The translations under genes were made by a program, and so were the position numbers. The notes beneath the pieces were generated by a model that did not search any database, had not been told where the DNA came from, and saw only the letters and a list, made by a program, of their open reading frames with translations. This document shows, in pieces, positions 5,390-20,543 of a stretch of DNA of 64,000 nucleotides. Position 1 is the stretch's first letter. The number at the start of each line of letters is the position of its first letter. Origin of the DNA: Escherichia phage 348Ecol098PP. The DNA is taken from sequence record OR062947.1. The stretch is one strand, 5' to 3'.

Positions 5390-6124
5390 ATGGAGCTAAT
5401 CTTTTTAAGTGGCATCAAACGTAGTGGTAAAGACACTACTGCTGATTACATCAATTCAAACTTTAAATCCGTAAAATACCAATTGGCATATCCGATTAAA
5501 GACGCTCTAGCAATAGCCTGGGGACGTAGGCATGCTGAAAACCCTGATGTATTCACAGAGTTGAAATACGAATACTTTGAAGGCATTGGATACGACCGTG
5601 AAACACCATTAAATCTCAATAAGTTGGATGTTATTGAATTATTGGAAGAAGCGCTAATTTATTTGCAAAGTCAATATTTACCAATTAATAATGTTAAAGT
5701 ATTATCATCGTTAGAAGGTGGATATTCGTATCTAGATATTAAACCATATGAAGCCCTGCGTGAAGCTATAAATAATATCAACGACACATGGTCAATCCGC
5801 CGTCTTATGCAAGCCCTCGGTACGGATGTTGTCGTTAATTTATTTGACCGTATGTATTGGGTTAAACTTTTTGCATTAAACTATATGGATTATATTGGAA
5901 GTGATTTCGATTACTATGTCGTAACCGATACACGTCAAGTCCATGAAATGGAAACCGCTAGAGCGATGGGTGCTACAGTTATTCATGTGGTTCGCTCTGG
6001 TACGGAATCCACCGATAAACATATTACAGAAGCTGGGTTGCCTATTGAAGAAGGCGATTTAGTTATTACAAACGACGGCTCTTTAGAAGAGCTTTATTCT
6101 AAAATTGAAACAATCTTAAGGTAA
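5390..6124 (+). CDS. 1: deoxynucleoside monophosphate kinase gp1
   Basis: 244 aa, N-terminal P-loop-like GIKRSGKDT; synteny. Confidence 0.8.
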   Translation: MELIFLSGIKRSGKDTTADYINSNFKSVKYQLAYPIKDALAIAWGRRHAENPDVFTELKYEYFEGIGYDRETPLNLNKLDVIELLEEALIYLQSQYLPINNVKVLSSLEGGYSYLDIKPYEALREAINNINDTWSIRRLMQALGTDVVVNLFDRMYWVKLFALNYMDYIGSDFDYYVVTDTRQVHEMETARAMGATVIHVVRSGTESTDKHITEAGLPIEEGDLVITNDGSLEELYSKIETILR

Positions 6125-6128
6125 TAAA

Positions 6129-6814
<686 letters not shown>

Positions 6815-6825
6815 TTTTCACAAAA

Positions 6826-6860
6826 CAGTTTACATAAAGATGATGGTGTGTTACTATCAT
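6826..6860 (+). promoter_or_regulatory. early sigma70-type promoter (GTTTAC ... tactat)
   Basis: GTTTACA -35-like box, about 18 nt spacer, -10-like tactat, partial inverted repeat; precedes ORF 6892. Confidence 0.5.
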
Positions 6861-6891
6861 CCTATCAAATAAACAGCCTCAAGGAAATAAA

Positions 6892-7203
6892 ATGAAAACT
6901 TATCAAGAGTTTATCGCTGAAGCTACTAAAGCCGATAAAAATTTTATTATTAACACCACCGGTCCGTTAGATGATGAATACGCTAATGCTATTATTAAGT
7001 CAATTTCTAATCAAGGCGTTGAAGTAACAAATTTCGAATATAAGAAAAATGATACTTATATGATAATTAGTATCAAAAAAGGTTCAAAGGCTAAAATTAA
7101 ATCTGCATTTGGTGTTATGCGAGTCGACCAAATCGATAACCACGATTTTTCACAAACAGGGGCCAAACGCCAAAACACCATTTCTTCTAAAGGCATAAAA
7201 TAA
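6892..7203 (+). CDS. internal-protein-like protein with capsid targeting sequence
   Basis: N-terminus MKTYQEFIAE = T4 internal protein capsid targeting sequence (CTS). Confidence 0.75.
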   Translation: MKTYQEFIAEATKADKNFIINTTGPLDDEYANAIIKSISNQGVEVTNFEYKKNDTYMIISIKKGSKAKIKSAFGVMRVDQIDNHDFSQTGAKRQNTISSKGIK

Positions 7204-7242
7204 TTTACAACTTGATAGGACTACTATATCATAGTCCTATCA
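7204..7242 (+). promoter_or_regulatory. early promoter inside perfect inverted repeat (PeSL-like)
   Basis: ATTTACA then 9-bp inverted repeat ataggacta/tagtcctat flanking the -10 region. Confidence 0.55.
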
Positions 7243-7264
7243 AAATAACCAAATGGAACCTAAA

Positions 7265-7528
7265 ATGAAAACTTTCAACGAATTCATCTCAGAATCGTCT
7301 GGTGTGAAAATTAACAAAGCGGTCAATCAGGTTATTGCTGATATTCTTAATTTGTATAACATTGACTTAACTCCGCATATCACGCTTGGTAACAAACGAA
7401 ACTTTTTCATATTTGACACATCCGAACTTGATGAAAATCAGTTCAATAACATTCAACGTTTTGCGAATGATAAAGGTCTTCGACACGAGCCTGGTGGCTA
7501 TAAAAAATACGCAATATATTTGAAATAA
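7265..7528 (+). CDS. internal-protein-like protein with CTS
   Basis: Starts MKTFNEFISE (CTS pattern); SD upstream. Confidence 0.7.
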   Translation: MKTFNEFISESSGVKINKAVNQVIADILNLYNIDLTPHITLGNKRNFFIFDTSELDENQFNNIQRFANDKGLRHEPGGYKKYAIYLK

Positions 7529-7529
7529 A

Positions 7530-7572
7530 GGTATACAAGCCTATAGGGATATGTTATAGTAGTCCTATCAAA
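7530..7572 (+). promoter_or_regulatory. early promoter / PeSL-like cassette
   Basis: gtatacaa ... tgttatagtagtcctatc, same cassette family. Confidence 0.45.
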
Positions 7573-7597
7573 ACAAATGAGTAAATGGAGAAATAAA

Positions 7598-7783
7598 ATG
7601 AAACGCGCTGAACTGATTCGTAATGTTGCTGTAGTAATTGCTTCAATGGCTTTTAGTTTTTCGATGTTTGTAGGATTCATTTGTGGACTACTGACAACAA
7701 CTGAAAACTCTATCTCATTGGTAGTAGCATTTCTAATCGGCTTAATCGCTATCGTTATGGATAAAATTGCAAAAGGTGAGTAA
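7598..7783 (+). CDS. small hydrophobic (membrane) protein
   Basis: 61 aa, one predicted TM segment; SD aaatggag before ATG. Confidence 0.55.
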   Translation: MKRAELIRNVAVVIASMAFSFSMFVGFICGLLTTTENSISLVVAFLIGLIAIVMDKIAKGE

Positions 7784-7784
7784 A

Positions 7785-8147
7785 ATGAAATATCACGTAT
7801 ATGCGGATTTTGAAGCAAATCCTTCTAAAGACCCCGATTGTCGTTTGATACGCAGACCATTTGATTCAGCAGCTCAAGCCTGGGCCTGGATTAAAACTTG
7901 TACTCCTTCTTACACTTTCTTTGAAGTGGTAGATGATAACGGTGTTCTGCATCCAGAACCTACAGAAACTATTAATTTCCTTCTGTTTGCAGGTTATGAC
8001 TGTTATCCTCTTGGCGGTATTGATGATCTTGTTGCTACAGGAAAAACTGTTGAGGCTCTTCGCGAAATCTACAAAAATGCTGAAGAAAATTTTGACTGGT
8101 ATCATATTGTTGATGCTCATACCTTTGAAATGGTGGAACATTCATGA
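7785..8147 (+). CDS. hypothetical protein
   Basis: 120-aa ORF with SD, packed between neighbours. Confidence 0.6.
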   Translation: MKYHVYADFEANPSKDPDCRLIRRPFDSAAQAWAWIKTCTPSYTFFEVVDDNGVLHPEPTETINFLLFAGYDCYPLGGIDDLVATGKTVEALREIYKNAEENFDWYHIVDAHTFEMVEHS

Positions 8148-8434
8148 TTCTTTACGCTAAAATAAAATCTGTCGAGAACGGATATGAAAGCGACCGTCGA
8201 GCGGCTAAAGCATTAGTCGATGACTACGGTATTTTGACTATTTTTGAGGTTGAAAAGGTTTACATCGACCGTTCGTCTTCACAGGTCAAATTACTATGGG
8301 AAGACCGTAAATTTAATACAGTGAACTTTGATTTCTTTATTGAAACCGAATCAGGTCCTGTTGAATATGATATTTTCAAGAATCCTTTGAAATTACGTTG
8401 CATTGAATATAATTACATTAATATGGTACGGTGA
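8144..8434 (+). CDS. hypothetical protein
   Basis: 96-aa ORF, ATGA overlap with upstream gene. Confidence 0.6.
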   Translation: MILYAKIKSVENGYESDRRAAKALVDDYGILTIFEVEKVYIDRSSSQVKLLWEDRKFNTVNFDFFIETESGPVEYDIFKNPLKLRCIEYNYINMVR

Positions 8435-8438
8435 GTAA

Positions 8439-8954
8439 ATGAATATTTGTTTAGGCAGTACAATTCCTAAGGGTTACGTAATTGATGTCACTACTTGGGA
8501 AAATGACGGCGACAACTATAAAACCAAAACATTATTTGGTGTAGAAGAGCATGAGCTCCAACAGTTTAAATATCTCTTGAAGAAATTTAAGAGTCGTCAT
8601 TCTAGCACTAAAGCTGAACGTTACTGTGGTAATACACCATTCAGTGATTGCTCGCTTTTAATCTATGAATACTTGGTTGAAGGACTGTTCTCAGACCAGC
8701 TTTATCCAGAATTCATTAAAAAGGTCTTTGGTATTGAAGTCGACCTTGGTGATAAATCTGAAGAAGACGAAGCCCGCGTATTCGACCTGTTCTTTGTGAA
8801 AGGCGATGAGGTATCTCAAGGACTTATTGATATTCTTGGCTATGCTTCTGAATACTACGACTATGATTTCTTGCGTGTAGTTGAACGTGTTGAATTCGCT
8901 TATATTGAAGAAGAAATTGTTTTGCCGACTGTTAAAATGATTGATTTGCTTTAA
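8439..8954 (+). CDS. hypothetical acidic protein
   Basis: 171-aa ORF. Confidence 0.6.
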   Translation: MNICLGSTIPKGYVIDVTTWENDGDNYKTKTLFGVEEHELQQFKYLLKKFKSRHSSTKAERYCGNTPFSDCSLLIYEYLVEGLFSDQLYPEFIKKVFGIEVDLGDKSEEDEARVFDLFFVKGDEVSQGLIDILGYASEYYDYDFLRVVERVEFAYIEEEIVLPTVKMIDLL

Positions 8955-9033
8955 GAATTATGTGTTATTATTAATTCATACCCTCTATTACCAAAGGTGC
9001 TCTAAAGTGCCTTTCATAATAGAAAGTTATTTA

Positions 9034-9107
9034 GGCCCTGTAGCTCAACGGTTAGCAGCAGTCCCCTCATAAGGGAAAGGTTACCAGTTCGAATCTGGTC
9101 TGGGTCA
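9034..9107 (+). tRNA. tRNA with CAU anticodon (Ile2 or Met)
   Basis: Hand-folded cloverleaf: acceptor GGCCCTG/CTGGGTC (one mismatch), D-loop with GG, anticodon loop CTCATAA, T-arm ACCAG-TTCGAAT-CTGGT; no encoded CCA. Confidence 0.6.
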
Positions 9108-9113
9108 TATATT

Positions 9114-9189
9114 CGAGGCATAGCTCAGAAGGAAGAGCAAGGACCTTCTAAGTCCTAGGTCGTAGGTTCGATCCCTACTGTCTCGACCA
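9114..9189 (+). tRNA. tRNA-Arg (anticodon UCU)
   Basis: Hand-folded: acceptor CGAGGCA/TGTCTCG, D-arm GCTC-AGAAGGAA-GAGC, anticodon loop CTTCTAA, T-arm GTAGG-TTCGATC-CCTAC, encoded CCA. Confidence 0.8.
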
Positions 9190-9207
9190 ACTTTAAGTGA
9201 GGAAAAT

Positions 9208-9552
9208 ATGAAAGGCAATATTTATCTGGTAGTTCATGATTTAACGTTTTATTTTAACGAATATGATACAGTTATTTCTCATCGATTGATTAATTCGCTG
9301 TATCAGCATGCCGATTACATTTATGTTCAAAATGAATTTGGACATTGGAAGTTCATTAAAAACCGTTCTGGGTTAACTAGTTTTGAATACTTTGATCGCA
9401 AAGACCTTTTAAACGAAATCCCATTGCAACATCGGTTCCAGAAACGCGAATCATTATATTATTGCCGTCATATACCAAACGCCGAATGTGTTAATGAAGC
9501 GATTAATCTATGGCGTCGGCGTCGAGAGCAAATTGATGATATGCCAAAATAA
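9208..9552 (+). CDS. hypothetical protein
   Basis: 114-aa ORF with SD GAGGA 7 nt before ATG. Confidence 0.6.
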   Translation: MKGNIYLVVHDLTFYFNEYDTVISHRLINSLYQHADYIYVQNEFGHWKFIKNRSGLTSFEYFDRKDLLNEIPLQHRFQKRESLYYCRHIPNAECVNEAINLWRRRREQIDDMPK

Positions 9553-9639
9553 GAAGCCGGGTCGCTACCGGTAAGTCGTCGGACTGATGTTCCCTGAGTA
9601 AGGACTGGTCTTAATAAATCTTTATGATTTGTTAATATC

Positions 9640-9815
9640 CCCTTACATCACAGCAGAAACGGCGCACAGAATTATCGATTCGAGGAAATATCTTTGCCGT
9701 AAGCCGAGTAGCGTTTTTGACGGAACGTTCGGATATGGTCGAGATATGGCCTTTTAAAAATATTGAGTAGCGTCAACTACTTAATAACCGGGTTCGAATC
9801 CCGGCGTTTCGTACA
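9640..9815 (+). ncRNA. possible small stable RNA with tRNA-like 3-prime T-arm
   Basis: Non-coding stretch with CCGGG-TTCGAAT-CCCGG T-arm-like hairpin at 9788-9804 but no canonical cloverleaf; terminator follows. Confidence 0.3.
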
Positions 9816-9854
9816 AACACTTACTTAGTAGGTGGAAACCCCGACAAGGTATAT

Positions 9855-9883
9855 AGCCCCTTCCGAAAGGTTGGGGCTTTTTT
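9855..9883 (+). terminator. rho-independent terminator
   Basis: agccccttccgaaaggttggggc hairpin followed by TTTTTT; same hairpin recurs at 25116. Confidence 0.7.
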
Positions 9884-9884
9884 G

Positions 9885-9892
9885 TATAAATA
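9885..9892 (+). promoter_or_regulatory. late promoter TATAAATA
   Basis: Exact TATAAATA about 35 nt upstream of CTS-protein gene 9928. Confidence 0.45.
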
Positions 9893-9927
9893 TAGTAAAC
9901 AATAAACCTACTTTCTAAGGACCGTCA

Positions 9928-10554
9928 ATGTATACTTTTAATGAATTTTTAGCCGAAACGGAAGTAATCACCGAAGCCGGTGTACGTATGACAAAAGAGA
10001 AATGGCAAGCTGCTTACGATGCTATTTCTGGTACAAAAACTAGTACAGAGTTTTTCAAAAACGTTCAAGCCATGTACGGTATCGACACTTCCAGCCAAAA
10101 AGAATATTACAGAGCTTCTAAAGCATTCAAAGATATTGTTAGTGGTGGTGTTTCTGCTAAATCGGGTTCGCCTAAAGTAAAACCTGCTCCTACCATTCCT
10201 AAACCTGCGACCCCTAAAGCAATAGCAAAACCTGAGCCTAAGCCGGAAGTAAAAGCAACTCCTAAAGCTCCTGCTCTTAAGTTTGATACTTCTAGCCTGG
10301 AAAAAAAATATAAACAACTATCTTCGCTTGTTCGCGATATTGAATCCGATACATCTTCACTCGTTCGTGAATTCAATAGTCTTCGTAATGGCCAACATAT
10401 CAACAACCTTGATACCCCGGACCTTTATCGTCTTTATTTGACTATCGAAGGTTTGAAGTACACTCAACCACTTCACGACGCGATTAAAGAAAAACTTCGT
10501 CAGGCAGGTCGTTTGGCTGCTGACGCTGCTCAGTATGCAAAAACTCGTAAGTAA
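9928..10554 (+). CDS. internal-protein-like protein with CTS and Pro/Lys-rich linker
   Basis: Starts MYTFNEFLAE (CTS pattern); central PKxxP low-complexity segment. Confidence 0.7.
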   Translation: MYTFNEFLAETEVITEAGVRMTKEKWQAAYDAISGTKTSTEFFKNVQAMYGIDTSSQKEYYRASKAFKDIVSGGVSAKSGSPKVKPAPTIPKPATPKAIAKPEPKPEVKATPKAPALKFDTSSLEKKYKQLSSLVRDIESDTSSLVREFNSLRNGQHINNLDTPDLYRLYLTIEGLKYTQPLHDAIKEKLRQAGRLAADAAQYAKTRK

Positions 10555-10559
10555 AGAAT

Positions 10560-10578
10560 GGGGACTTCGGTCCCCTTT
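10560..10578 (+). terminator. rho-independent terminator (TTCG tetraloop)
   Basis: ggggac-ttcg-gtcccc followed by TTT. Confidence 0.65.
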
Positions 10579-10604
10579 AGGGGGTCTATAACTTACTGAA
10601 AAAG

Positions 10605-10645
10605 TTGTTTACTTCTTCCCTAGATGTGTTACTATAGACCTATCA
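10605..10645 (+). promoter_or_regulatory. early promoter
   Basis: GTTTAC ... gtgttactat before ORF 10664. Confidence 0.5.
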
Positions 10646-10663
10646 AAACACGTGGAGAATATT

Positions 10664-10969
10664 ATGAGTCTTTACACTGAACTGAATAAAAAATCTGAAG
10701 AATCCGCTGAAACTATTTTTAAAAACGTGCAAAAGCGTATTTTAGAAAAGATGTATAACACTGCAGCTAAAGGTGAAAAATCTTGCCGGTTTCCGATTAG
10801 GTGTTCTTCAGATTTATGCGCAAATACTATTGAATGGCTGGAAAGTGAAGGTCTTACAGTAGAGAAAAACCCGGCGACTTCTATTGACGGCGAATCATAT
10901 ATTAGTATTTCTTGGGATAAACCACGTATGAATGAAGGACACTACAAGTTGTTAAGTTGGAAAAATTAA
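10664..10969 (+). CDS. hypothetical protein
   Basis: ORF with SD; ATG MSLYTELNKK. Confidence 0.6.
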   Translation: MSLYTELNKKSEESAETIFKNVQKRILEKMYNTAAKGEKSCRFPIRCSSDLCANTIEWLESEGLTVEKNPATSIDGESYISISWDKPRMNEGHYKLLSWKN

Positions 10970-10976
10970 AAATAAT

Positions 10977-11010
10977 GATGTACAAGCACCAAGGATGGTG
11001 ATACTATAGA
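10977..11010 (+). promoter_or_regulatory. early promoter (atgatgtaca subfamily)
   Basis: TGTACA -35-like, -10-like tactat; related cassettes at 29408, 31368, 32388, 63061. Confidence 0.45.
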
Positions 11011-11037
11011 CTTATCAACTACAGAGGAGTAAACAAA

Positions 11038-11202
11038 ATGACTACTTTAATTATTTGGTTCGATGAAAATGAAGAAACATACTGTGTGAATATTGGTGAA
11101 AGTCCAATGCCTGAATTTGAATCCTCAGATAAAAACTCTGTTGTATCTTGGGCTGAAGGTTATAAAGCAGCTAAAGGTGACGTTGAAATAATTTACATCT
11201 AA
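11038..11202 (+). CDS. small hypothetical protein (54 aa)
   Basis: ORF below track cutoff; SD agaggag before ATG; promoter upstream. Confidence 0.45.
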   Translation: MTTLIIWFDENEETYCVNIGESPMPEFESSDKNSVVSWAEGYKAAKGDVEIIYI

Positions 11203-11225
11203 GTAAGTTTATGTTATAGTAGTCC
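11188..11225 (+). promoter_or_regulatory. early promoter / PeSL-like cassette
   Basis: atttaca ... tgttatagtagtcctatc. Confidence 0.45.
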
Positions 11226-11248
11226 TATCAAATCAAGAGGAAAACAAA

Positions 11249-11476
11249 ATGGCTAAAGTTAGTATTGATGTCGTTGATTATGAATACACCGAAGAAGTTA
11301 TTCGCAACCGTCACCCTGAAGTTCGTATCGATTCAGCCCAAGATTCCAAGTTCTGGACAACTGAGCTTAATCTGAGTGGTCCTTATGAAGCTGTTAAGAA
11401 GTTCATGGTTGAAGAATACTGCGAAGGCATGCACCCGGAAGACGCCAAGTTTTATGTCAATTTGATTAAAAAATAA
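11249..11476 (+). CDS. hypothetical protein
   Basis: 75-aa ORF. Confidence 0.6.
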   Translation: MAKVSIDVVDYEYTEEVIRNRHPEVRIDSAQDSKFWTTELNLSGPYEAVKKFMVEEYCEGMHPEDAKFYVNLIKK

Positions 11477-11524
11477 TTTACAAACTCTTGAGAGCAGAGT
11501 ATAATGCTCTCATTGGATAATAAA
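11477..11524 (+). promoter_or_regulatory. early promoter TTTACA-17-TATAAT within inverted repeat; duplicated cassette
   Basis: Canonical -35/-10 spacing; inverted repeat gagagca/tgctctc around -10; 45-nt identical copy at 40957-41001. Confidence 0.65.
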
Positions 11525-11546
11525 CCACCAATTGAAAGGTAATAAT

Positions 11547-12140
11547 ATGAACACACTGAAGAAACTTGTCGAATTCATCCGCACTAAATTGGGTACTGCT
11601 ATGGCTAAAAATCTGACTGTCGAAGAACAGTATAACGCAGCTGCAGATAAGTTGATTACCCAAATCAAAGAACTAAAAACGGCTTCTGTTAAATCTATTA
11701 ATGAAGAAAAACGTATTCGCGAACTTGTTAATGAAAAGAACAAGCAAGCCGCTTCTAAGGAACGTGAAATTCGTAAGCTCCTGGCCGAAGGACAAGATGT
11801 TACCATGCATGCTAAGCTTGGTCTTCTGTATCGTCGAACTGCCGAACAACTTAATACAAAAGCTGACGGGTATGCCGCTATGCGAATTGAAATTGCTCGT
11901 AAGGTGGTTGAACTTGATGATGCTCGTCAGAACCTGGCAATCAAACTCGAATACATTCGTGAAACTCGAGCAGCCAATGCCCTTGGTATCTCTACGGCCG
12001 ATGATGTAATTGAAATCGCTGCACTGACTAAGGTTGATATCGAAGACACTCTGACTCGTGTTGAAACGTTCAATGGCACTCCAGCAGGTGTCGAAACCAC
12101 TTCTGCTGATGTACAAGAATATATTAACTCTTTGAAATAA
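11547..12140 (+). CDS. coiled-coil protein
   Basis: 197 aa, largely heptad-like charged sequence. Confidence 0.6.
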
Positions 12141-12148
12141 AATAATAC

Positions 12149-12170
12149 GGAGGACTCCGGTCCTCCTTTT
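12149..12170 (+). terminator. rho-independent terminator
   Basis: ggaggac-tccg-gtcctcc followed by TTTT. Confidence 0.7.
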
Positions 12171-12189
12171 GGATAATAAAGGAGTTAAC

Positions 12190-12792
12190 ATGCGAAACCA
12201 AAATAATGATATTGACTCAATGTTCGAAGAGTTCCGAGATAAGGTAAATCCACCTACGTCTTTAGTTGATTCATTACGATATGTTGCAACCGGACGTAAA
12301 TGGTACTGGTCGTCTTCTTATGAGACCACCGAGAAAACGGCTAGCCATAGCAGAAAATCTTTATTAGCCCCAGGTATTATGATTCATGATATCGGAGCTA
12401 TTGCTAAACTAGTTGCAGATCATGATATTAGATTCACCGATTTCGTTGCTCCTACATGGTCTGTTTGTTGTTTAAACACTGAATTGGAATATATCAGCGA
12501 ACGCTCTGAAGATTATTATGGTTTTAGAGATAAGCTTCTGAGGTCTAATATGTTTTATATCGATACAGAAGTTCTAGTCGATAATAAAAAATATTACTTT
12601 ACGTTAATCATCGATTCTGAAACTATGTATGAAGGCAAGCCTTTGCTTAAAAGAGTTGATGCTTTAAGTGCTATTGATGCGCTTTATGAAACCATGGTTG
12701 TTAGTCCTAATTTCACTAACAATTTAATCCTTGAGCAATTTATTATGGAATGTAGAGAATATGTCAAAGCCAACCCTGTACATGCCAAGTAA
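12190..12792 (+). CDS. hypothetical protein
   Basis: 200-aa ORF with SD aaggag. Confidence 0.6.
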   Translation: MRNQNNDIDSMFEEFRDKVNPPTSLVDSLRYVATGRKWYWSSSYETTEKTASHSRKSLLAPGIMIHDIGAIAKLVADHDIRFTDFVAPTWSVCCLNTELEYISERSEDYYGFRDKLLRSNMFYIDTEVLVDNKKYYFTLIIDSETMYEGKPLLKRVDALSAIDALYETMVVSPNFTNNLILEQFIMECREYVKANPVHAK

Positions 12793-13153
12793 GCCCTGGG
12801 CATACGAATACAAACGTAAATTAATCCCAAACGAAGTACTATTTGGCCCTATTTTAGCTTTAGCATTTTTAATCTTTATGATTATAGGAGCTGTTTTAGA
12901 TTCTAGTGAAGTTATATCGTCTGATGCAGTGTTTTTACTTATTATAGCTGGGTCGTTTATTGTGCCATTTTTATTAATGCCTATTAATTGGGTGGGATAT
13001 TGGTACCAAGGACGTCATCACAGAGCTAGAGTACGCGAATGGAAAATTCAATGTGCAAAAGCAAGAGCTCAATATGACGAGGCTGTTAAAAAATATGAAT
13101 ATGACGAAGCCATGGAATTCGTTAAGGAGATAAGATGCAAAAGCCTGAACTGA
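12782..13153 (+). CDS. membrane protein (2 predicted TM)
   Basis: Starts at ATG overlapping upstream stop; hydrophobic segments. Confidence 0.55.
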   Translation: MPSKPWAYEYKRKLIPNEVLFGPILALAFLIFMIIGAVLDSSEVISSDAVFLLIIAGSFIVPFLLMPINWVGYWYQGRHHRARVREWKIQCAKARAQYDEAVKKYEYDEAMEFVKEIRCKSLN

Positions 13154-13162
13154 ATTTATGCT

Positions 13163-13192
13163 GTTTACGCTTCTCAAATGATTAGTTATAAT
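13163..13192 (+). promoter_or_regulatory. early promoter GTTTAC-N18-TATAAT
   Basis: Direct read. Confidence 0.55.
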
Positions 13193-13251
13193 GAACTCCT
13201 AGCTAGACGTGAAAATGAAACAATCGAAAACTTTATTAAGGAATGTAGAAA

Positions 13252-13557
13252 ATGAGTAAGATTATTGAAATTAAAGTACCAGAGTTTAATGATGCCAAAT
13301 CCGCTTCAGATGCAATTTATAAACTTCTGAATCAAGCTGAACGTATCGAAGAAGAAGCAACAAAGATCGCAGACCAATATGCCGTATCATTTTCTGTAGG
13401 TGATTATGGTAGCGGTCGTACTTATTATCCTAAGGGTGAAATCGTATCCCAGTGGATGAAAAATGAAATTGAAAATAATGGTGGCGATGTTAAGCGTGAA
13501 GGTAATGGTTACGTTATTACTGAAGGTGCTTGGGTTTCGTCTTCTGCGTTGTGCTAA
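13252..13557 (+). CDS. small protein, paralog 1 of 3 (C-terminal WVSSSxxC motif)
   Basis: Ends ...GAWVSSSALC. Confidence 0.6.
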   Translation: MSKIIEIKVPEFNDAKSASDAIYKLLNQAERIEEEATKIADQYAVSFSVGDYGSGRTYYPKGEIVSQWMKNEIENNGGDVKREGNGYVITEGAWVSSSALC

Positions 13558-13566
13558 GGAATCATT

Positions 13567-13839
13567 ATGTCTAAAGAACAAACCGAACTGGCTGAAGCTG
13601 TAGCAAAAATCTATGCAGCTATTGAGGCTGCCAAAGAAATTGCTGATAAACAAAACACAACATTCGACTTGCACCCAGCTTATGGTATGGGTGGAACCTA
13701 TCATTCACCCGGACATCTTAAAGCCGATCTTGAACGTTGTACAAAAAACGGCTATGCTGAATGGGCTGACGTTTACCAATACGACTACAACCTGAGCCTC
13801 GAAACTGGTGGTTGGGTCGCATCTTCTCACACTTGCTAA
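13567..13839 (+). CDS. small protein, paralog 2 of 3
   Basis: Ends ...GGWVASSHTC. Confidence 0.6.
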   Translation: MSKEQTELAEAVAKIYAAIEAAKEIADKQNTTFDLHPAYGMGGTYHSPGHLKADLERCTKNGYAEWADVYQYDYNLSLETGGWVASSHTC

Positions 13840-13848
13840 GGAAACTAT

Positions 13849-14046
13849 ATGTCTCGTGAATTAGATTGTGCTGTACGTACCGCAGTAGCTGCCCTGGAAA
13901 ACCTGTTCCAAATTGCAACAGAAGAACGCGAAGAAGTTACATTGTGGATTGAAGATAACGCAGGTCTGAATCTCCAGGACGCGATCTCATTATCCCACAA
14001 TAGTATCACTGTTCAAGGCTGGGTATCATCTAGTTATTCTTGCTAA
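13849..14046 (+). CDS. small protein, paralog 3 of 3
   Basis: Ends ...QGWVSSSYSC. Confidence 0.6.
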   Translation: MSRELDCAVRTAVAALENLFQIATEEREEVTLWIEDNAGLNLQDAISLSHNSITVQGWVSSSYSC

Positions 14047-14049
14047 AAC

Positions 14050-14090
14050 AGTTTACAACAAGATAGGGCTATGTTATAGTAGTCCTATCA
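14050..14090 (+). promoter_or_regulatory. early promoter / PeSL
   Basis: GTTTACA ... atagggcta tgttatag tagtcctat. Confidence 0.5.
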
Positions 14091-14108
14091 AATTAAATGG
14101 AGTCCACA

Positions 14109-14348
14109 ATGATTTATTACGAAAGTATCGGAACCAAAGTGGTTGCTAAAACCATTACTCGTGAAAAGTTTGCAAAGATATTCGATATGCGTTATAAAAA
14201 ATCTGAACACAAAGGCATCCGATTCGAAGATGCGCACTGTACAATTTGCCCTTATAATGAAGACATAAACGGTACAATCGTTCCATTGGTAGAGGCTTCA
14301 CACGATGACCTCTGGGATGAATATGATATCGCATGTCGTGAAATTTAA
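14109..14348 (+). CDS. hypothetical protein
   Basis: SD GGAG before ATG (MIYYESIG). Confidence 0.55.
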   Translation: MIYYESIGTKVVAKTITREKFAKIFDMRYKKSEHKGIRFEDAHCTICPYNEDINGTIVPLVEASHDDLWDEYDIACREI

Positions 14349-14376
14349 GTTAATGAATTAATCCGAGGAAAATATT

Positions 14377-15333
14377 ATGATGTTAGTTATTGGTTCTCGT
14401 GCACTTCACTATCACGGTCTTATTGATTCTAGCGCTATCAAAAATAGTGATTGGGACTTTATTGCGGACCAAGGTTCTTGGAATGCATTCAAAAATCAAA
14501 TGATGGGTGTATATGTTCACCAAGATAACCCTAATGTTCAAGTTTTCAAATGCTTCCATAATGGACGCGAAACTCATTTTGAAGCATATATTGTTCCGGC
14601 AATCACTAATGTCCGTGAATTAGTCGGTGAACTCACTCCTGAAGATTTCACGTCTTCTTATGACCTTTTAAAATACGCCAAGAAAAATTTGACTAAAGAC
14701 CGTTTGAACGGGTTTTACTGGGCAACTCCTGAGATATGTCTTGCAATTAAGATGTCTCATCGTTTCAAGAAAAATAATCCATTCTTTTTAAAGACTATGA
14801 ACCATATTCAGTATCTTCGTGGTAAAGGTGTTACACTGAACGATGAACTTACTGAAATTATGCTGAAACGCCAGAAAGAAACCTTGAACTATGCTCACCC
14901 AGTTCTTGACACTTCTAAAAGTGCGTTCTTTAAAGATGACATCTATACATATGACCATGATACTATTCATGAAGCCATTGCACTAACAGACCGTCCAGCG
15001 TATACATTTTATATGAAAGATGGTTCTGAAGTCATGACCTCACGCGAGAAGTTCGAATCGTTACCCGAAATGATTAAACTGGCTGGTGTATACGAAGAAT
15101 CATGTGTACTAGCATTAGAACGTTCTCAAATTCCTAATGACTTTAAAATTAACCCTGAAGCCAGTTTTATGATGGCATTGGAAAAAGTCTGTACAAGCAT
15201 CACCTCCGGTTGGTTCCGTGAATACGCATACGAGAACTATTATGAAGTAGTGGCTATGTATCATAAGCTCGGCAAAAATGATTACGTCAAACGTTTCAAA
15301 CAAAATTTCCATATGGTAAAACCTTTCAAATAA
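14377..15333 (+). CDS. hypothetical protein, possible nucleotidyltransferase fold
   Basis: N-terminal GS-x17-DWD resembles a loosened pol-beta nucleotidyltransferase motif. Confidence 0.5.
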   Translation: MMLVIGSRALHYHGLIDSSAIKNSDWDFIADQGSWNAFKNQMMGVYVHQDNPNVQVFKCFHNGRETHFEAYIVPAITNVRELVGELTPEDFTSSYDLLKYAKKNLTKDRLNGFYWATPEICLAIKMSHRFKKNNPFFLKTMNHIQYLRGKGVTLNDELTEIMLKRQKETLNYAHPVLDTSKSAFFKDDIYTYDHDTIHEAIALTDRPAYTFYMKDGSEVMTSREKFESLPEMIKLAGVYEESCVLALERSQIPNDFKINPEASFMMALEKVCTSITSGWFREYAYENYYEVVAMYHKLGKNDYVKRFKQNFHMVKPFK

Positions 15334-15343
15334 CTTCACAAAA

Positions 15344-15385
15344 CTGTTTACGCAATTATAGGACTATGTTATAGTAGTCCTATTA
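15344..15385 (+). promoter_or_regulatory. early promoter inside perfect inverted repeat (PeSL)
   Basis: GTTTAC, inverted repeat ataggacta/tagtcctat flanking tgttatag. Confidence 0.55.
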
Positions 15386-15403
15386 AAACATGAGGAGAAT
15401 ATT

Positions 15404-15709
15404 ATGAAATTAGGCGAAACCAACCGAATTGGTCTTTTAACAATATTTGCATCACCTTTTTACGCAACTCTTTCTGTTGCAGTATTACAAAAGGCTTACA
15501 GTATGGATGGTGTTCCTGGTTTTGTATTCTTATCACCGTTTTTATTATTCGTCGGAGCTTTGTTATTATATGCCACGACTAGTTTCGACCATAATGTCTG
15601 GGTCAATTATAAATGTAAATTGTCCGAAGAAGAACACGCAGAAGCTCGTAAAAAAGCTATTGAATCTACCAATCTAGAAAATTTCATTAAAGAATGTCGA
15701 GGAAAATAA
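15404..15709 (+). CDS. membrane protein
   Basis: 101 aa, 2-3 hydrophobic segments. Confidence 0.6.
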   Translation: MKLGETNRIGLLTIFASPFYATLSVAVLQKAYSMDGVPGFVFLSPFLLFVGALLLYATTSFDHNVWVNYKCKLSEEEHAEARKKAIESTNLENFIKECRGK

Positions 15710-15710
15710 T

Positions 15711-16397
15711 ATGAATAGTTCTAAAGTGTTTAATAGTCAAGCTCGTGCAGTAGGTGGTTTTGCTCATGCGATTAAAAACGACCAGATTAAAAACGAGCCT
15801 ATGTTCTTTAACTGCGATTTGAATTTTGCTTTTGATAATGGTGGTCCAATTACTCGTAGCTTTATCATGAACTTGCCAGATGATTGGAACACCGACCAGG
15901 TTGTATTTGATTCACGAGTCCACATGCTGATGCCAGGTTGGTACCCTGCTATTCCTGGATATCACCATGACGATGTTCCACGCCCTGATATTCCAGTTGG
16001 TCAACACTTTATTACTGCAGGACAACCTGACTATGACAATCCTCGTTATTTGTCTGAACATATTCTTGGTCTTGTTAACGCTGATGTGTGTCCTACTCAT
16101 TTTGCAACAGGAACTGCAGAGTTCAGTCAGATTCCTGATGGCGAACTTATCTATCGCCAGTGGCACAAAGAAGTCCTCGAAAAAATTGAAAAAGGTGAAC
16201 TAGAGAAATGGGAAGCTCCAGATCGTACTCTTCTTCAGTTTGATTGGCAAACATGGCACACTGGTTCTCGTGCAATTAGTAACGGATGGCGTTGGTTCGG
16301 ACGTGTATCTCGTAATACAGACCGAGTTAAAAAGATTACCAATGAAATTCGTGTCAACGCTCAAGTTTATCTGGAATTCCCTATGGAAGGCTGGTAA
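15711..16397 (+). CDS. hypothetical protein
   Basis: 228-aa ORF. Confidence 0.6.
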   Translation: MNSSKVFNSQARAVGGFAHAIKNDQIKNEPMFFNCDLNFAFDNGGPITRSFIMNLPDDWNTDQVVFDSRVHMLMPGWYPAIPGYHHDDVPRPDIPVGQHFITAGQPDYDNPRYLSEHILGLVNADVCPTHFATGTAEFSQIPDGELIYRQWHKEVLEKIEKGELEKWEAPDRTLLQFDWQTWHTGSRAISNGWRWFGRVSRNTDRVKKITNEIRVNAQVYLEFPMEGW

Positions 16398-16876
16398 TGA
16401 TTAACAATAATATAGACGATGGCAATGAAGGTATTTCGTATTATTCAGTAGATTGGACAGGATGTCCATCCTACTTAGTGAAACATATTTGCCAAGAATT
16501 TAAAATCGACCAGCCAGCAGGTATTATCGTGAACAGATACATTAATGGATATCAACCTATCGATGAAGTAATACGAACAACTCAAGCTGAGCTTGAAAAG
16601 TTTTTCAATAAGTGCCAATGGATAACAGGATGGATTATATTTGTACCGTCGGTATGGTTTTTCGGTACTAAGGTGAGTTCTTTCGGTTTTGTTGATATTA
16701 TTGCTATCTTATTAGCATCTACTATCGTAAGTATTATTGGTGGTATTATTGGTGGAGGTACTGTAGGCATCATTATTAATCTTGTTAAAAGTAGTTTACA
16801 GGAACGTAAAGACAAGATAAAAGCCAAGAATAATGAAGTTGAACGTTTTATTACCGAATGCAGGAATTTGAGATGA
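16397..16876 (+). CDS. membrane protein with glycine-zipper segment
   Basis: IIGGIIGGGTVGIIINL hydrophobic Gly-zipper. Confidence 0.6.
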   Translation: MINNNIDDGNEGISYYSVDWTGCPSYLVKHICQEFKIDQPAGIIVNRYINGYQPIDEVIRTTQAELEKFFNKCQWITGWIIFVPSVWFFGTKVSSFGFVDIIAILLASTIVSIIGGIIGGGTVGIIINLVKSSLQERKDKIKAKNNEVERFITECRNLR

Positions 16877-17109
16877 GTATAGCAATTTACGTTAAATCAG
16901 AATCATGTGATAGTTATCTGTACACATACGATAAAGATGTGTCAGAAGAAAAAATCAAAGACGACCTTAATATGGACCTTGATATGTTCTGTCCTATTGC
17001 AGATTACAAACTTGCGGTCTCTAATAGTGAAAGTCCATCTAAAGAAACGCGCATTGAAGAATTTATGTCCGAATTAATGGCCAAATCATGGGACCGAGAT
17101 GATGAGTAA
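16873..17109 (+). CDS. hypothetical protein
   Basis: ATGA overlap start. Confidence 0.5.
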   Translation: MSIAIYVKSESCDSYLYTYDKDVSEEKIKDDLNMDLDMFCPIADYKLAVSNSESPSKETRIEEFMSELMAKSWDRDDE

Positions 17110-17557
17110 GAAAAATAAAGTGAAAGAACTATCAGCCGGTATTATTTTCCTTACCGAAGATAAAGAGTTATTCATGGGGCGTGTAACTGGTTCTCGTCCT
17201 AAAGGTGCATTAGCTCATCGGTGGGATATTCCTAAAGGCCGTGTCGAACCTGGCGAATCTCCTATTGAAGCCGCTATTCGTGAATGCGAAGAAGAAACTG
17301 GGTTTACACAATATGACCCTGCCTTCCTGAAAGACTTAGGTGAACGTCATTACTCAGACAATAAGAATATTCATCTGTTCCAATATACCATCCCTGTAGA
17401 GCACGAGCAATTCAGAAACAGTGTTTGTAATTCCTATCATACATTCCCAGACGGACGTCAGATTCCTGAATTTGATGCATTCGCTTTAATTAAACCTTCT
17501 CAATGGGAATATGTAATGGGCAAATCATTATATAAGGTGCTCACTACCCTCCTATAA
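17099..17557 (+). CDS. nudE: Nudix hydrolase NudE
   Basis: Nudix box GRVEPGESPIEAAIRECEEETG. Confidence 0.85.
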   Translation: MMSKKNKVKELSAGIIFLTEDKELFMGRVTGSRPKGALAHRWDIPKGRVEPGESPIEAAIRECEEETGFTQYDPAFLKDLGERHYSDNKNIHLFQYTIPVEHEQFRNSVCNSYHTFPDGRQIPEFDAFALIKPSQWEYVMGKSLYKVLTTLL

Positions 17558-17591
17558 GTAATAAATACCTCCTATAAACGTGGGAGGTATT

Positions 17592-18080
17592 ATGAATATA
17601 TTTGAAATGCTTCGTAATGACGAAGGTCTTAGACTGACTTTATATAAAGACACTGAAGGCTTTTGGACGATTGGCATAGGCCATTTAGTAACAAAGAACC
17701 CGTCTTTAGCCGTAGCTAAAGCTGAACTTGACAGAATGATCGGTCGTAAATGCAACGGTACAATTACCCTTGATGAGGCTGAAAAGCTATTTAATGAAGA
17801 CGTTGATAAAGCCGTTCGCGGAATCTTGGGTAATGCTAAACTTAAACCGGTATACGATTCTTTAGATGCAGTTCGTCGATGTGCATTGGTCAATATGGTC
17901 TTCCAAATGGGTGTAGCAGGCGTCGCCGGTTTTACTAATTCTCTTCGTATGCTTCAACAGAAACGTTGGGATGAAGCGGCAGTAAATCTAGCCCAATCTA
18001 AATGGTATCGTCAGACACCTAATCGCGCGAAACGCGTAATCTCAACATTTAAAACAGGAACTTGGAAAGCGTATATATGA
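17592..18080 (+). CDS. e: endolysin (T4 lysozyme e)
   Basis: [32 protein letters not shown]..., about 164 aa. Confidence 0.95.
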
Positions 18081-18358
18081 AAACATATAGTGAATTTTTA
18101 TCAGAATCTATTCTTAACGAAGCTACTGACACATTTGCAACTAAGCTAGGTGCAGCTTTGGTTGAAGCTGAAAGTCTATTAGCACGTATTTCTGAACTTG
18201 CTAGTAAGATAGATACTCGCAAATTTGAGCGCACCAGTGATATCGTTAAGCTTGAAGCCTTATTGCGTATGTGCGATAAACCGGAAGAAATCGCTAAGAA
18301 CGGCTCGCTGATGAAACAACGTCTTGAAAAATATATTTCAGGCGCTTCAGAAAAATAG
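18077..18358 (+). CDS. internal-protein-like protein with CTS
   Basis: Starts [10 protein letters not shown], overlaps e stop. Confidence 0.7.
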
Positions 18359-18359
18359 T

Positions 18360-18412
18360 GTTTACTTCCTCCAAGGGTTTTGATACTATACATTCATCAA
18401 CTACTTGGAGGA
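18360..18412 (+). promoter_or_regulatory. early promoter in stem-loop whose 3-prime arm carries the SD (PeSL)
   Basis: GTTTAC; inverted repeat tcctccaag/cttggagga; SD for denV inside 3-prime arm. Confidence 0.5.
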
Positions 18413-18416
18413 AATT

Positions 18417-18830
18417 ATGACTCGTATCAATTTAACACTTGTTTCTGAACTGACCGACCAACACCTTATGGCTGAGTATCGTGAATTACCACGCGTATTT
18501 GGTGCAGTCCGTAAACATGTTCAAAACGGTAAACGTGTAAAGGATTTTAAAATCTCTCCAACATTTATCTTAGGCACAGGTCACGTAACATTCTTTTACG
18601 ACAAACTCGAATTTTTACGTTTACGACAAATCGAGCTAATCGCTGAATGTTTGAAACGTGGTTTCAAAATCAAGGACACGACAGTCCAGGATATTTCCGA
18701 CATCCCTGCCGAATTTCGTAATAATTATGTCCCGTCCGAAGCGTCCATTGCGATAAGTCAAGCGCGCTTAGATGAAAAAATTGCTCAACGTCCGACTTGG
18801 TACAAATACTATGGTAAATCAATTTACTAA
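18417..18830 (+). CDS. denV: endonuclease V (pyrimidine dimer DNA glycosylase) DenV
   Basis: [34 protein letters not shown]..., recalled T4 endo V. Confidence 0.9.
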
Positions 18831-18836
18831 GGAAAA

Positions 18837-19097
18837 ATGAAAATGTATCAAGAATTTATCGTTGAAGCAGATGCCAAAGGTCCTAAATTTAAAGTTAAAG
18901 CTTTCATTGGTGATGCGGAAGACTTTGGCTCATTAAAACGTAATGGGTATTCTTTCTTAGGTGGCAATGGTAAAGAAATCAACACCTATGCAAAACGTAG
19001 TGAAATTGCTTATGTTGTAGCAAGTCCTAAAGTAGATGTTGACGATATTGGATATGATTTTAACAACTTCGGAATTATTTCTGGCGGTAAAGCTTAA
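18837..19097 (+). CDS. internal-protein-like protein with CTS (ipII position)
   Basis: Starts MKMYQEFIVE; follows denV as ipII does in T4. Confidence 0.7.
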   Translation: MKMYQEFIVEADAKGPKFKVKAFIGDAEDFGSLKRNGYSFLGGNGKEINTYAKRSEIAYVVASPKVDVDDIGYDFNNFGIISGGKA

Positions 19098-19100
19098 ACG

Positions 19101-19130
19101 GTTTACGCTTAAGTATTAATATGGTATAAT
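19101..19130 (+). promoter_or_regulatory. early promoter GTTTAC-N18-TATAAT
   Basis: Direct read. Confidence 0.55.
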
Positions 19131-19161
19131 TACTCTATCAAAACAAACAAGGAAACAAAAA

Positions 19162-19476
19162 ATGAAAACGTATAAAGAATTTATTGCAGAATCCGCCAAC
19201 CAACGCGTTGAAGGTGGTTATATTTGGATTGAACAAGTTGAGCCACCGAGCCGCACTTCTACAGGTAAATGGAAAATTACTGTTGACGGTCCTGGCGGTA
19301 AACGTAGGACTCTTAAAGAAATTAATGGGTACTATGAAGAAGCTCTTTCGGATGCAGGAACTTACATGATGCAAATCATGATTAAAAACCCTGAAAACCG
19401 TTTTGCAGCTAAAGTCTTCCGTCGTATTGGTAATAAACTTTATGATGCATACTCTAAAAACTTCCCTAAAGAATAA
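19162..19476 (+). CDS. internal-protein-like protein with CTS (ipIII-like)
   Basis: Starts MKTYKEFIAE. Confidence 0.7.
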   Translation: MKTYKEFIAESANQRVEGGYIWIEQVEPPSRTSTGKWKITVDGPGGKRRTLKEINGYYEEALSDAGTYMMQIMIKNPENRFAAKVFRRIGNKLYDAYSKNFPKE

Positions 19477-19501
19477 CATAAATTAAAACAATAGGAACAA
19501 A

Positions 19502-19831
19502 ATGAAAACATATCAGGAGTTTATCACTGAAGTTACATTATCTGCGGAACAGAAAGCTGCTATCGAAGAAGGTAAAAATCCCAAAGTAACATATAAAGTA
19601 AATAGTAAAGGCGTTTTTGATGGCTTGGTTCAAGACCCTGAATTGAAAAAAGTTCTTTCTAAAACTAATGCGTACTTTGCTCCTAAATTTAACACAGCCG
19701 GTGTACTTATTGGATTGGATGTATTCAACTCTAAAGGTGTTCTATCTAATGCCTTTGGTTATGCCGCTAACAAAATTACCAAAGCCGCATGGGAATCCAA
19801 TACTAAACAAGCTCAAAAGCCTAGAGTATAA
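19502..19831 (+). CDS. internal-protein-like protein with CTS (ipIII-like)
   Basis: Starts MKTYQEFITE. Confidence 0.7.
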   Translation: MKTYQEFITEVTLSAEQKAAIEEGKNPKVTYKVNSKGVFDGLVQDPELKKVLSKTNAYFAPKFNTAGVLIGLDVFNSKGVLSNAFGYAANKITKAAWESNTKQAQKPRV

Positions 19832-20003
19832 TTCTTGCCTAATAAAGGGAAACGCAACCTCTCCTTATGAACGTCGAGTCCTCTAAGTGATGTACCTTTT
19901 CCAACCTGTAATAAGGTCGAGCGCAATGCGGTAATGGGTTTACATAGCGAGTCGAAGGACCTAACATGTGCCATGGAATGGCCCAAACCTTAAGAGAAAT
20001 AAT

Positions 20004-20543
20004 ATGAGAACATTTTTAACTGGTCCTTATCTATCCCTGATGAATGCTTTTACACACCATTCTGATGCTAGAGTAGAAGAAATTTGTAAGAATGGTTATG
20101 TCCCACCATTTGAAGACGTACTCAAGCAGTACTGTACACTTCGTTTAGACGGTGGCAGACAATCAGGTAAATCAACCGCAATAACTAATTTTGCTGTTAA
20201 TTGGCTGTATGATGGTGGAACAGTTATTGTTCTTTCTAATACTTCAGCTTATGCTAAAATTTCTGCTGGCAACATTAAAAAAGAATTTTCTCGTTATTCT
20301 AGCGATGATATTCGATTCCGTTTATTTACTGATTCTGTTCGTAGTTTTATTGGCAATGAAGGTTCTAAATTCCGTGGATTAACGCTTTCTCGTATTCTGT
20401 ATATAATTGACGAGCCTATTAAAGCTCCTGATATGGATAAGATTTACAATGTCCACATTAAAACAGTACAGCACTGCTGCAAAAGCAAATATTGCATCGG
20501 CGGTAATGCTCGTCCTCAATTTTTTGTGATTGGAATGCAATGA
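20004..20543 (+). CDS. P-loop NTPase-like protein
   Basis: Walker A-like GGRQSGKST. Confidence 0.55.
   Translation: MRTFLTGPYLSLMNAFTHHSDARVEEICKNGYVPPFEDVLKQYCTLRLDGGRQSGKSTAITNFAVNWLYDGGTVIVLSNTSAYAKISAGNIKKEFSRYSSDDIRFRLFTDSVRSFIGNEGSKFRGLTLSRILYIIDEPIKAPDMDKIYNVHIKTVQHCCKSKYCIGGNARPQFFVIGMQ

Follow-up and report, generated by a model that had tools for sequence, protein, structure and literature searches.

The stretch of DNA analysed here, called the window below, is 64,000 nucleotides (64 kb) of sequence record OR062947.1 of Escherichia phage 348Ecol098PP, with positions counted from its first letter. Between positions 6892 and 19831 it holds seven open reading frames (ORFs) whose products begin with similar ten-residue leaders of the type known in phage T4 as the capsid targeting sequence (CTS) of the internal proteins (Ip). 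The seven genes, named after their start positions, are as follows.

6892..7203, + strand: ip6892, 103 amino acids (aa), leader MKTYQEFIAE, Ip7-like; opens the ipI locus, on the downstream side of 57B.
7265..7528, + strand: ip7265, 87 aa, leader MKTFNEFISE, Ip9 orthologue.
9928..10554, + strand: ip9928, 208 aa, variant leader MYTFNEFLAE; lies after tRNA-Met and tRNA-Arg.
18077..18358, + strand: ip18077, 93 aa, residues 13-15 forming a second site, LNE; distantly Ip5-related.
18837..19097, + strand: ip18837, 86 aa, leader MKMYQEFIVE; starts 6 nt past the denV stop.
19162..19476, + strand: ip19162, 104 aa, leader MKTYKEFIAE, Ip10 orthologue.
19502..19831, + strand: ip19502, 109 aa, leader MKTYQEFITE; member of a narrow, mostly Mosigvirus family.

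The stretch 6800-19900 matched 845 phage records, and its best matches were the Mosigvirus genomes moskry, mar005P1, JN02 and RB69, with 95-97% identity over 92-95% of the length. By sequence similarity the window is assigned to Mosigvirus, RB69 group, at about 96% identity. The gene order is like that of RB69 and T4, running from gp1, 57A and 57B through an Ip locus to trna.4-trna.2, tRNA-Met and tRNA-Arg, and onward through e.6-e.2, nudE, the lysozyme gene e, an Ip gene, denV and further Ip genes to vs.8. A preliminary description made from the letters alone had treated 6892-19831 as one feature; it actually consists of three loci set apart by about 25 unrelated genes. Six of the seven genes are housed in the classic polymorphic Ip loci (57B-trna.4 and e-denV-vs.8), which are syntenic with T4 ipI and ipIII/ipII, respectively. 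The remaining gene, ip9928, lies at a third Ip locus after the tRNA genes, where RB69 has the CTS gene ORF149c.

We scanned all six frames of the window with regular expressions. The strict motif M[KY][TM][YF].EF[IL].E gave seven matches, all at ORF starts, and none in 200 shuffled sequences. The shorter core [YF].EF[ILV].E also gave only these seven, where 0.175 would be expected, and looser patterns found no further leader copies anywhere in the window. The seven ORFs of the preliminary description are therefore all present on the + strand at the starts it gave. Its leader formula, M-K/Y-T-Y/F followed by the common core, holds for six of them and fails at position 3 of ip18837, which is methionine. 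The mechanical ORF list offered alternative upstream starts for two genes, ATG at 7253 for ip7265 and TTG at 18062 for ip18077. The starts that place the CTS first are the plausible ones: 7265 is preferred because its GGAA-N5-6-ATG context is the same as that of its sister genes, and 18077 because its ATG shares bases with the stop codon of e (ATGA).

Identification of the leader as the T4 internal-protein CTS, which the preliminary description had proposed, is borne out by direct comparison. T4 IpII and IpIII (NC_000866) begin with MKTYQEFIAE, identical to the leader of ip6892, and T4 IpI begins with MKTFKEFTS. The other six leaders differ from MKTYQEFIAE by 1-5 substitutions, mostly at positions 5 and 9, which are free to vary both among the seven and among Ip9 orthologues. 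All seven keep an aromatic residue (Y/F) at position 4, Phe7, Ile or Leu at position 8, and Glu10. The [IL]-x-E motif is present at residues 8-10, reading in gene order IAE, ISE, LAE, LSE, IVE, IAE and ITE; among Ip9 orthologues the same residues read IAE, ISE, ITE, IVE and INE. The capsid targeting sequence of T4 internal proteins was reportedly described by Mullaney & Black in 1996. The kept positions are those that matter in T4, where the first 10 residues of IpIII are enough for head incorporation, mutagenesis points to residues 4 and 7 for targeting and to residues 8 and 10 for processing, and gp21 cleaves after Glu (PMC9026906).

Selection acts on the leader as a peptide. This constraint is placed at the peptide level because different synonymous codons encode the same residues (Thr3 ACT/ACA/ACG; Glu6 GAG/GAA; Phe7 TTT/TTC; Ile8 ATC/ATT). 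Nucleotide identity over the 30 nt of the leader is 63-90%, and the longest common exact run is 6-14 nt. A purely nucleotide-level signal as the cause of leader conservation is ruled out by this synonymous variation.

We then compared the bodies, with the leader removed. BLASTP gave nothing significant for any pair, and profile-profile comparison by hhalign, using small family alignments, gave a probability below 1% for all 21 pairs. PHROGs groups ip6892 with ip18837 in phrog_2667 and ip19162 with ip19502 in phrog_3966. PHROGs families come from remote-homology clustering of whole proteins with the leader included, and shared membership is weak evidence of homology that may be leader-driven. 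We did not accept the two PHROG pairs as homologous bodies, since BLASTP and hhalign without the leader found no related pair. The earlier statement that the bodies are unrelated thus holds as far as these two methods can see, the two lumped PHROG pairs notwithstanding, and "paralogous", the term it used for the genes, is a misnomer: the 10-residue leader alone is common to all seven.

The comparison was extended to the T4 proteins. None of the seven matched PF11634 (IPI_T4) even at E <= 1, and the positive controls T4 IpI and RB69 IpI scored 180 and 170 bits (E ~1e-50), so that this is a phage without Ip1. BLASTP to T4 IpI aligned the leader region only (residues 1 to ~25), with a score that was not significant. 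Against IpII and IpIII, five of the seven aligned in the leader region only (first 11-30 residues), and the alignments of ip7265 and ip19502 to IpII, over 43 and 53 residues, were not significant with the leader discounted.

To assign families, we used PHROGs profiles and searched 50,697 phage records by tblastn with the mature parts. PHROGs families labelled "internal head protein" take in four of the seven. Sequence similarity places five of the seven in named or annotated internal head protein families, namely Ip7-like, Ip9, Ip5-related, an unnamed family and Ip10. The mature proteins are 8-22 kDa in size, with a basic isoelectric point (pI, 8.2-9.7) in six. All seven genes are complete, their leaders and ribosome-binding contexts are intact, and each is 92-100% conserved in many independent isolates. 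The mature part of ip6892 (93 aa, pI 9.5) matches phrog_2667, "internal head protein", at E 1.9e-38; the protein is 68% identical to T2 Ip7 (over 97% of its length), 66% to CC31 ip7 and 96% to RB69 ORF156c, and 156 phage records were matched. For ip7265, which matches phrog_7673, "internal head protein", at E 7e-49 and 181 phage records, identity is 76% to VR25 ip9 and 71% to RB15 Ip9 (Q38376); its slot is the Ip1 slot in RB69, moskry, JS09 and T4. An AF2 model of ip7265 (predicted template modelling score, pTM, 0.71) is a small alpha/beta sandwich with a disordered leader. The ip18077 product matches phrog_3499, "internal head protein", at E 1.2e-46, is 47% identical to fFiEco06 ip5 and to T6, and matched 496 phage records, its relatives in moha, moskry and GADS24 being labelled "putative internal head protein". 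With PHROGs matches to phrog_35655 and phrog_2667, ip18837 is 94% identical to RB69 ORF125c and belongs to a family called "internal head protein" in ST0, LF82-16, phi25-307 and VR25 (215 phage records matched). Finally, ip19162 (phrog_3966, 189 phage records) is 72% identical to VR7 "Ip10", and its JS09 orthologue is annotated "Ip10; similar to CAA84455 Ip10 [phage Pol]".

The two other genes are less familiar. The product of ip9928 matches phrog_2280, of unknown function, at E 1.3e-57; it matched 138 records and is a "hypothetical protein" in every annotated one among the matches listed. Leaders of its homologues read MKTYNEFLNE, MLKFKEF and MLNFNEFITE, and in its family alignment residues 14-16 form another conserved [IL]-x-E|A site. 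An AF2 model has helical domains at about 20-72 and 122-206 with a disordered Pro/Lys-rich linker between them, and Foldseek against PDB and BFVD returned just generic helical bundles and its own family. An NCBIfam TonB line for ip9928 was rejected as a compositional match of this linker. For ip19502, 90 records matched, and it is "hypothetical" in every annotated one among the matches listed; it falls in 2 clusters (90%) among 5.8 billion proteins. An exhaustive HMMER search found its own cluster and one 119-aa relative (P0039, 37% identity) that starts with MKTYQQFITE. The two proteins, filed under phrog_2280 and phrog_3966 with "unknown function", are recognisable from their leaders as CTS proteins, which is modestly new, as is the third Ip locus that ip9928 marks. 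The body of ip19502 (19532-19828) also contains three short N-[ST]-[KA]-G-V-[FL]-like repeats, which in the exhaustive search gave weak multi-stretch matches to the large repeat proteins P0038, P0040, P0041 and P0044.

In order to follow the genes between related phages, we compared all CTS-type ORFs of T4, of seven other Mosigvirus records and of the window. They fall into 11 body families and occupy three slots, with 3-7 CTS genes per genome. The contents of the slots are as follows.

Slot after 57B: Ip1 alone in moskry, mar007P3, GADS24 and JS09; Ip7-like alone in p000v; Ip7-like and Ip1 in RB69; Ip7-like and Ip9 in the window and G2469.
Slot after the tRNA genes: ORF149c (MKTYAEFLTE) in RB69; ip9928-type in all the others.
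Last slot before vs.8: ip19502-type in the window, RB69, moskry, mar007P3 and GADS24; IpII in JS09; IpIII in p000v; IpIII and IpII in G2469.

Pairwise blastn located the joints. Homology with moskry ends at 6914, codon 8 of ip6892, and homology with RB69 ends at 7291, codon 9 of ip7265. Homology with JS09 and p000v ends at 19532 and 19525, within codons 8-11 of ip19502 (at the end of the CTS or one codon beyond). Homology picks up again directly behind the stop codons, at 7531 and 19901. At the third locus, the left junction against RB69 is at 9891, inside a late-promoter box. The Ip repertoire is thus built by cassette exchange, with the left joint in the CTS codons or the promoter and the right joint just past the stop. 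Since the breakpoints fall in the CTS codons or the promoter, the leader (or promoter) serves as the 5' joint for body exchange, and the mapping illustrates how the leader doubles as a recombination joint. A shuffling model for ip loci was reportedly put forward by Repoila et al. in 1994. The presence of many ip genes with a CTS leader in the two loci is noted by Silas et al. (PMC12373910), citing Repoila et al. 1994.

Damaged genes were seen in two relatives. In JS09 the member of the ip18837 family (13399-13515) is cut to 38 aa and is apparently a pseudogene; Ip genes evidently undergo loss in addition to exchange. In the RB69 record AY303349 (2003), three Ip genes (regions 13499-13780, 14583-14855 and 14924-15253) are unlike those of the window and six other Mosigvirus genomes: in ORF127c a compensated -1/+1 frameshift destroys the CTS (the sequence there is MKTYMNFYQNLS), ORF124c (Ip10) is truncated by an extra G, and ORF123c has E10A, so that the cleavage Glu is gone. 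These changes are either sequencing errors or real decay in the laboratory strain.

Taken together, we consider it likely that the seven genes encode T4-type internal proteins that are CTS-targeted, cleaved by gp21, injected, probably anti-restriction in function, and swapped as cassettes. By analogy with experiments on T4, the 10-residue N-terminal CTS would carry each precursor into the assembling prohead core, and gp21 would cleave behind Glu10, at the [IL]-x-E motif (in ip9928 perhaps behind Glu16). After this cut the proteins, 8-22 kDa in size and mostly basic, would be retained in the head with the DNA and injected together with it. Judging from T4 Ip1, Ip2 and Ip3, their most likely job would be to neutralise first-line, strain-specific host defences. 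The chief targets would be modification-dependent (type IV, GmrSD-type) restriction enzymes, each Ip presumably being fitted to one variant.

For T4, the CTS-tagged internal proteins, their hypervariable loci and their role against restriction are textbook knowledge, and genes of this class have been known since 1994. The preliminary description was correct that T4 IpI* blocks GmrSD, as IPI* is a reported inhibitor of that enzyme (PMC3012670). IpIII is required on ECOR17 and is functional without its CTS (PMC9391042), and T4 Ip1, Ip2 and Ip3 each inhibit one distinct GmrSD (PMC12373910). Silas et al. further proposed that other genes of the two Ip loci target more GmrSD variants (PMC12373910). 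The anti-defence idea for these loci is therefore an already published hypothesis and not a new one (PMC3012670, PMC12373910). The class, the leader, the loci, their shuffling and the proposed anti-defence role have all been published before, and GenBank already contains the sequences at 96-100% identity. What the present analysis offers in practice is a worklist: a phage without Ip1 and with seven intact candidate injected proteins, two of which are not recognised as internal proteins in any annotated record among the matches listed.

Several points weigh against this interpretation. Our literature search found no virion proteomics, N-terminal sequencing or phenotype for any of the seven or for their orthologues. 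No Pfam or NCBIfam model matched one of the seven proteins above threshold, no body resembles IPI*, IpII or IpIII, and the two AF2 models (ip7265 and ip9928) had no informative fold match. The leader of ip9928 is unusual (Tyr2) and its gene is outside the two classic loci, and ip18077, with a mature pI of 6.3, is the sole non-basic member of the seven. The protease and scaffold genes lie outside the window; gp21, gp22, gp67 and gp68 are found in RB69, which is about 96% identical here. A canonical late promoter is present at ip9928 only, the other genes having early-type promoter-like sites or following e/denV, so late expression is an assumption carried over from T4, where the promoter-like layout of the ip genes is the same. 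The DNA of the RB69 group carries arabinosyl-hydroxymethylcytosine (arabinosyl-hmC) and not glucosyl-hmC (PMC9026906); the restriction enzymes that matter here may therefore not be the ones known from work on T4.

Packaged Ips might instead be mainly structural or charge-neutralising parts of the core, acting in prohead scaffolding or in DNA condensation and ejection, and have no specific anti-defence target. The basic character of six of the mature proteins and the long Pro/Lys-rich disordered linker of ip9928 are in keeping with such a role, as are the roughly 1000 T4 Ip molecules that contact DNA phosphates via lysines (PMC3012670) and the head-assembly aberrations of IpIII-minus and triple-Ip mutants (PMC9026906). 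It leaves unexplained, however, why 11 unrelated bodies are swapped among phages about 96% identical, and T4 Ips are dispensable on laboratory hosts while all three have specific GmrSD targets. We regard a purely structural role as unlikely, and the structural and anti-defence roles are not mutually exclusive. Less likely again is that some of the seven are decaying or unexpressed remnants of cassettes. The 38-aa JS09 copy of the ip18837 family and the RB69 record, with its frameshifted ORF127c and ORF124c and E10A in ORF123c, would be precedents for decay, but the full length and intact leaders and ribosome-binding contexts of all seven genes here, together with their 92-100% conservation in many independent isolates, argue against it.

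The shared 5' ends could also be a nucleic-acid element, whether a translation-initiation or regulatory RNA signal or a recombination hot spot, in which case the peptide would be functionless. Breakpoints do fall within the CTS codons, and the Shine-Dalgarno context GGAA-N5-6-ATG is common to the genes too. Against this stand the synonymous codon differences with amino acids kept, the modest nucleotide identity and short exact runs given above, and the fact that both variable positions (5 and 9) are whole codons. The invariant residues are moreover those that matter in T4, and the same peptide stands ahead of about 50 unrelated bodies in metagenomic phages, which together make this explanation very improbable. 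Within the preferred reading of the genes as injected internal proteins, a more far-reaching variant deserves tentative mention, though we rather doubt it: at least one of the seven, most plausibly the two-domain ip9928 or the Mosigvirus-restricted ip19502, might be an injected inhibitor of a defence beyond the GmrSD variants of T4 Ip1-3. Candidate targets would be an enzyme attacking the arabinosyl-hmC DNA of the RB69 group or a non-restriction system. In a broader form of this reading, MKTYxEFIxE would load cargo generally in T4-like phages, cyanophages with a packaged SAM lyase among them. If this were true, injected anti-defence proteins could be listed cheaply by scanning for the tag.

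Several known systems can be set beside the seven genes. With T4 IpII and IpIII they share the leader (identical in ip6892), the e-denV-vs.8 neighbourhood and the promoter-like layout, whereas the bodies have no detectable similarity; IpII and IpIII themselves occur in other Mosigvirus (JS09, p000v and G2469) in the slot held here by ip19502. With T4 IpI/IPI* (PF11634) they share the locus downstream of 57B and a CTS-type leader. A true Ip1 stands at the 57B locus in RB69, moskry, mar005P1, GADS24 and JS09, unlike the seven, none of which matches PF11634. The Ip4-Ip10 series of T-even phages was reportedly described by Repoila, Tetart, Bouet & Krisch (1994, EMBO J 13:4181). It supplies homologues (Ip7, 68%; Ip9, 71-76%; Ip10, 72%; Ip5, 47%) and has the same two hyperplastic loci and shuffling behaviour; by contrast, ip9928 and ip19502 have no Ip name in the database records compared, and ip9928 is at the third locus. 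The Dar (defence against restriction) proteins of phage P1 are reported to be capsid-packaged and injected, and to shield incoming DNA from restriction. They are unrelated proteins of an unrelated phage, and packaging here would go, by analogy with T4, via an N-terminal tag of 10 residues that is cleaved off. Head-internal cargo with a propeptide removed by the prohead protease, and delivered to the host, is also represented by T4 Alt and by the ejection proteins of the giant phages SPN3US and phiKZ (PMC9026906); these are large enzymes or many-protein boluses with other propeptides, not small MKTYxEFIxE cassettes.

Outside the window, the tag was sought in IMG/VR by exact matching of the pattern ATGAARACNTAYNNNGARTTYATHNNNGAR, which found at least 120 stretches. 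This 120-stretch sample contained at least 124 ORFs with an N-terminal MKTYxEFIxE, 52-610 aa long, in about 52 unrelated body clusters. A 10-member cluster matches Pfam PF23780 (S-AdoMet lyase; S-adenosylmethionine, SAM) with 53-72 bits against a cut-off of 28; examples are L022:3283-3765(+), L060:2221-2706(+) and L121:111-935(+), with leaders MKTYKEFIQE, MKTYSEFIQE and MKTYREFIAE. The neighbours of these genes, read from ORF translations, are photosystem II reaction-centre-like, ferredoxin, glutaredoxin and cobS/cobT-like, and by these neighbours the contigs are T4-like cyanophages. A CTS-SAM lyase would be packaged and injected, and would be a plausible cargo against restriction. In the T4-like cyanophage S-CREM2, mass spectrometry of virions revealed a SAM hydrolase (PMC10665884). 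A PDB sequence search with a cyanophage CTS-SAM-lyase protein gave no match. The spread of bodies makes the natural cargo of the tag far wider than the enterobacterial Ips and supports the view of a portable cargo tag. Other loci seen in the same scan (within L009-L128) include L127:4099-4740(+), L049:2888-4717(-) and L018:1027-2346(+). The sample also includes a CTS protein with an AAA_33 P-loop kinase domain, and a cluster of 12 very basic proteins (178-610 aa) without a Pfam match.

Promoters and terminators were called as consensus matches. The calls next to the ip genes are as follows.

6829..6857, + strand: promoter-like TTTACA-17-TACTAT, TG-extended, sigma-70/T4-early-like, upstream of ip6892.
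7204..7232, + strand: promoter-like TTTACA-17-TATCAT, upstream of ip7265.
9855..9892, + strand: terminator-like hairpin with a T run (9855-9884), then a T4 late-promoter box, TATAAATA (9885-9892).
19102..19130, + strand: promoter-like TTTACG-17-TATAAT, TG-extended, upstream of ip19162 and ip19502.

The promoter-like (G)TTTAC[AG]-17-TAnnnT sites stand at -60 to -63 from ip6892, ip7265 and ip19162, a layout that is the same in T4 ipI, ipII and ipIII; ip19502 starts 25 nt after ip19162. The late box TATAAATA is a perfect match 43 nt before ip9928. The start of ip18077 overlaps the stop of the lysozyme gene e (ATGA, 18077-18080), which suggests that ip18077 may be translationally coupled to this late lysis gene.

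An inverted repeat straddles the -10 hexamer upstream of ip genes, at 6839-6861 for ip6892 and 7212-7243 for ip7265. The latter forms a 12-bp stem around the hexamer (-16.6 kcal/mol, z = -4.9); z is -4.1 for T4 ipI and -5.9 for T4 ipII, and the hairpin of ip6892 is weaker (-1.8). The stems differ in sequence and share their position, and each is followed by CTATCAAA or CTCATCAAA. RNA processing, transcript stability and promoter occlusion are possibilities for their role.

Two minor features lie in the intervening DNA. A 375-bp stretch (9553-9927) between the ORF150c homologue and ip9928 has no convincing ORF and ends in the terminator-like hairpin abutting the late promoter. In T4 the stable RNAs rnaC and rnaD lie in the corresponding tRNA region; an Rfam search over 6000-20500 returned just tRNA-Met (9034-9107) and tRNA-Arg (9114-9189). 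Further along, three tandem small ORFs on the + strand (13252-13557, 13567-13839 and 13849-14046; 101, 90 and 65 aa), in the region of RB69 ORF139c, 137c and 136c, form a local paralogue family whose members start with MSK or MSR and end with G-W-V-[SA]-S-S-x-x-C, with a conserved C-terminal Cys.

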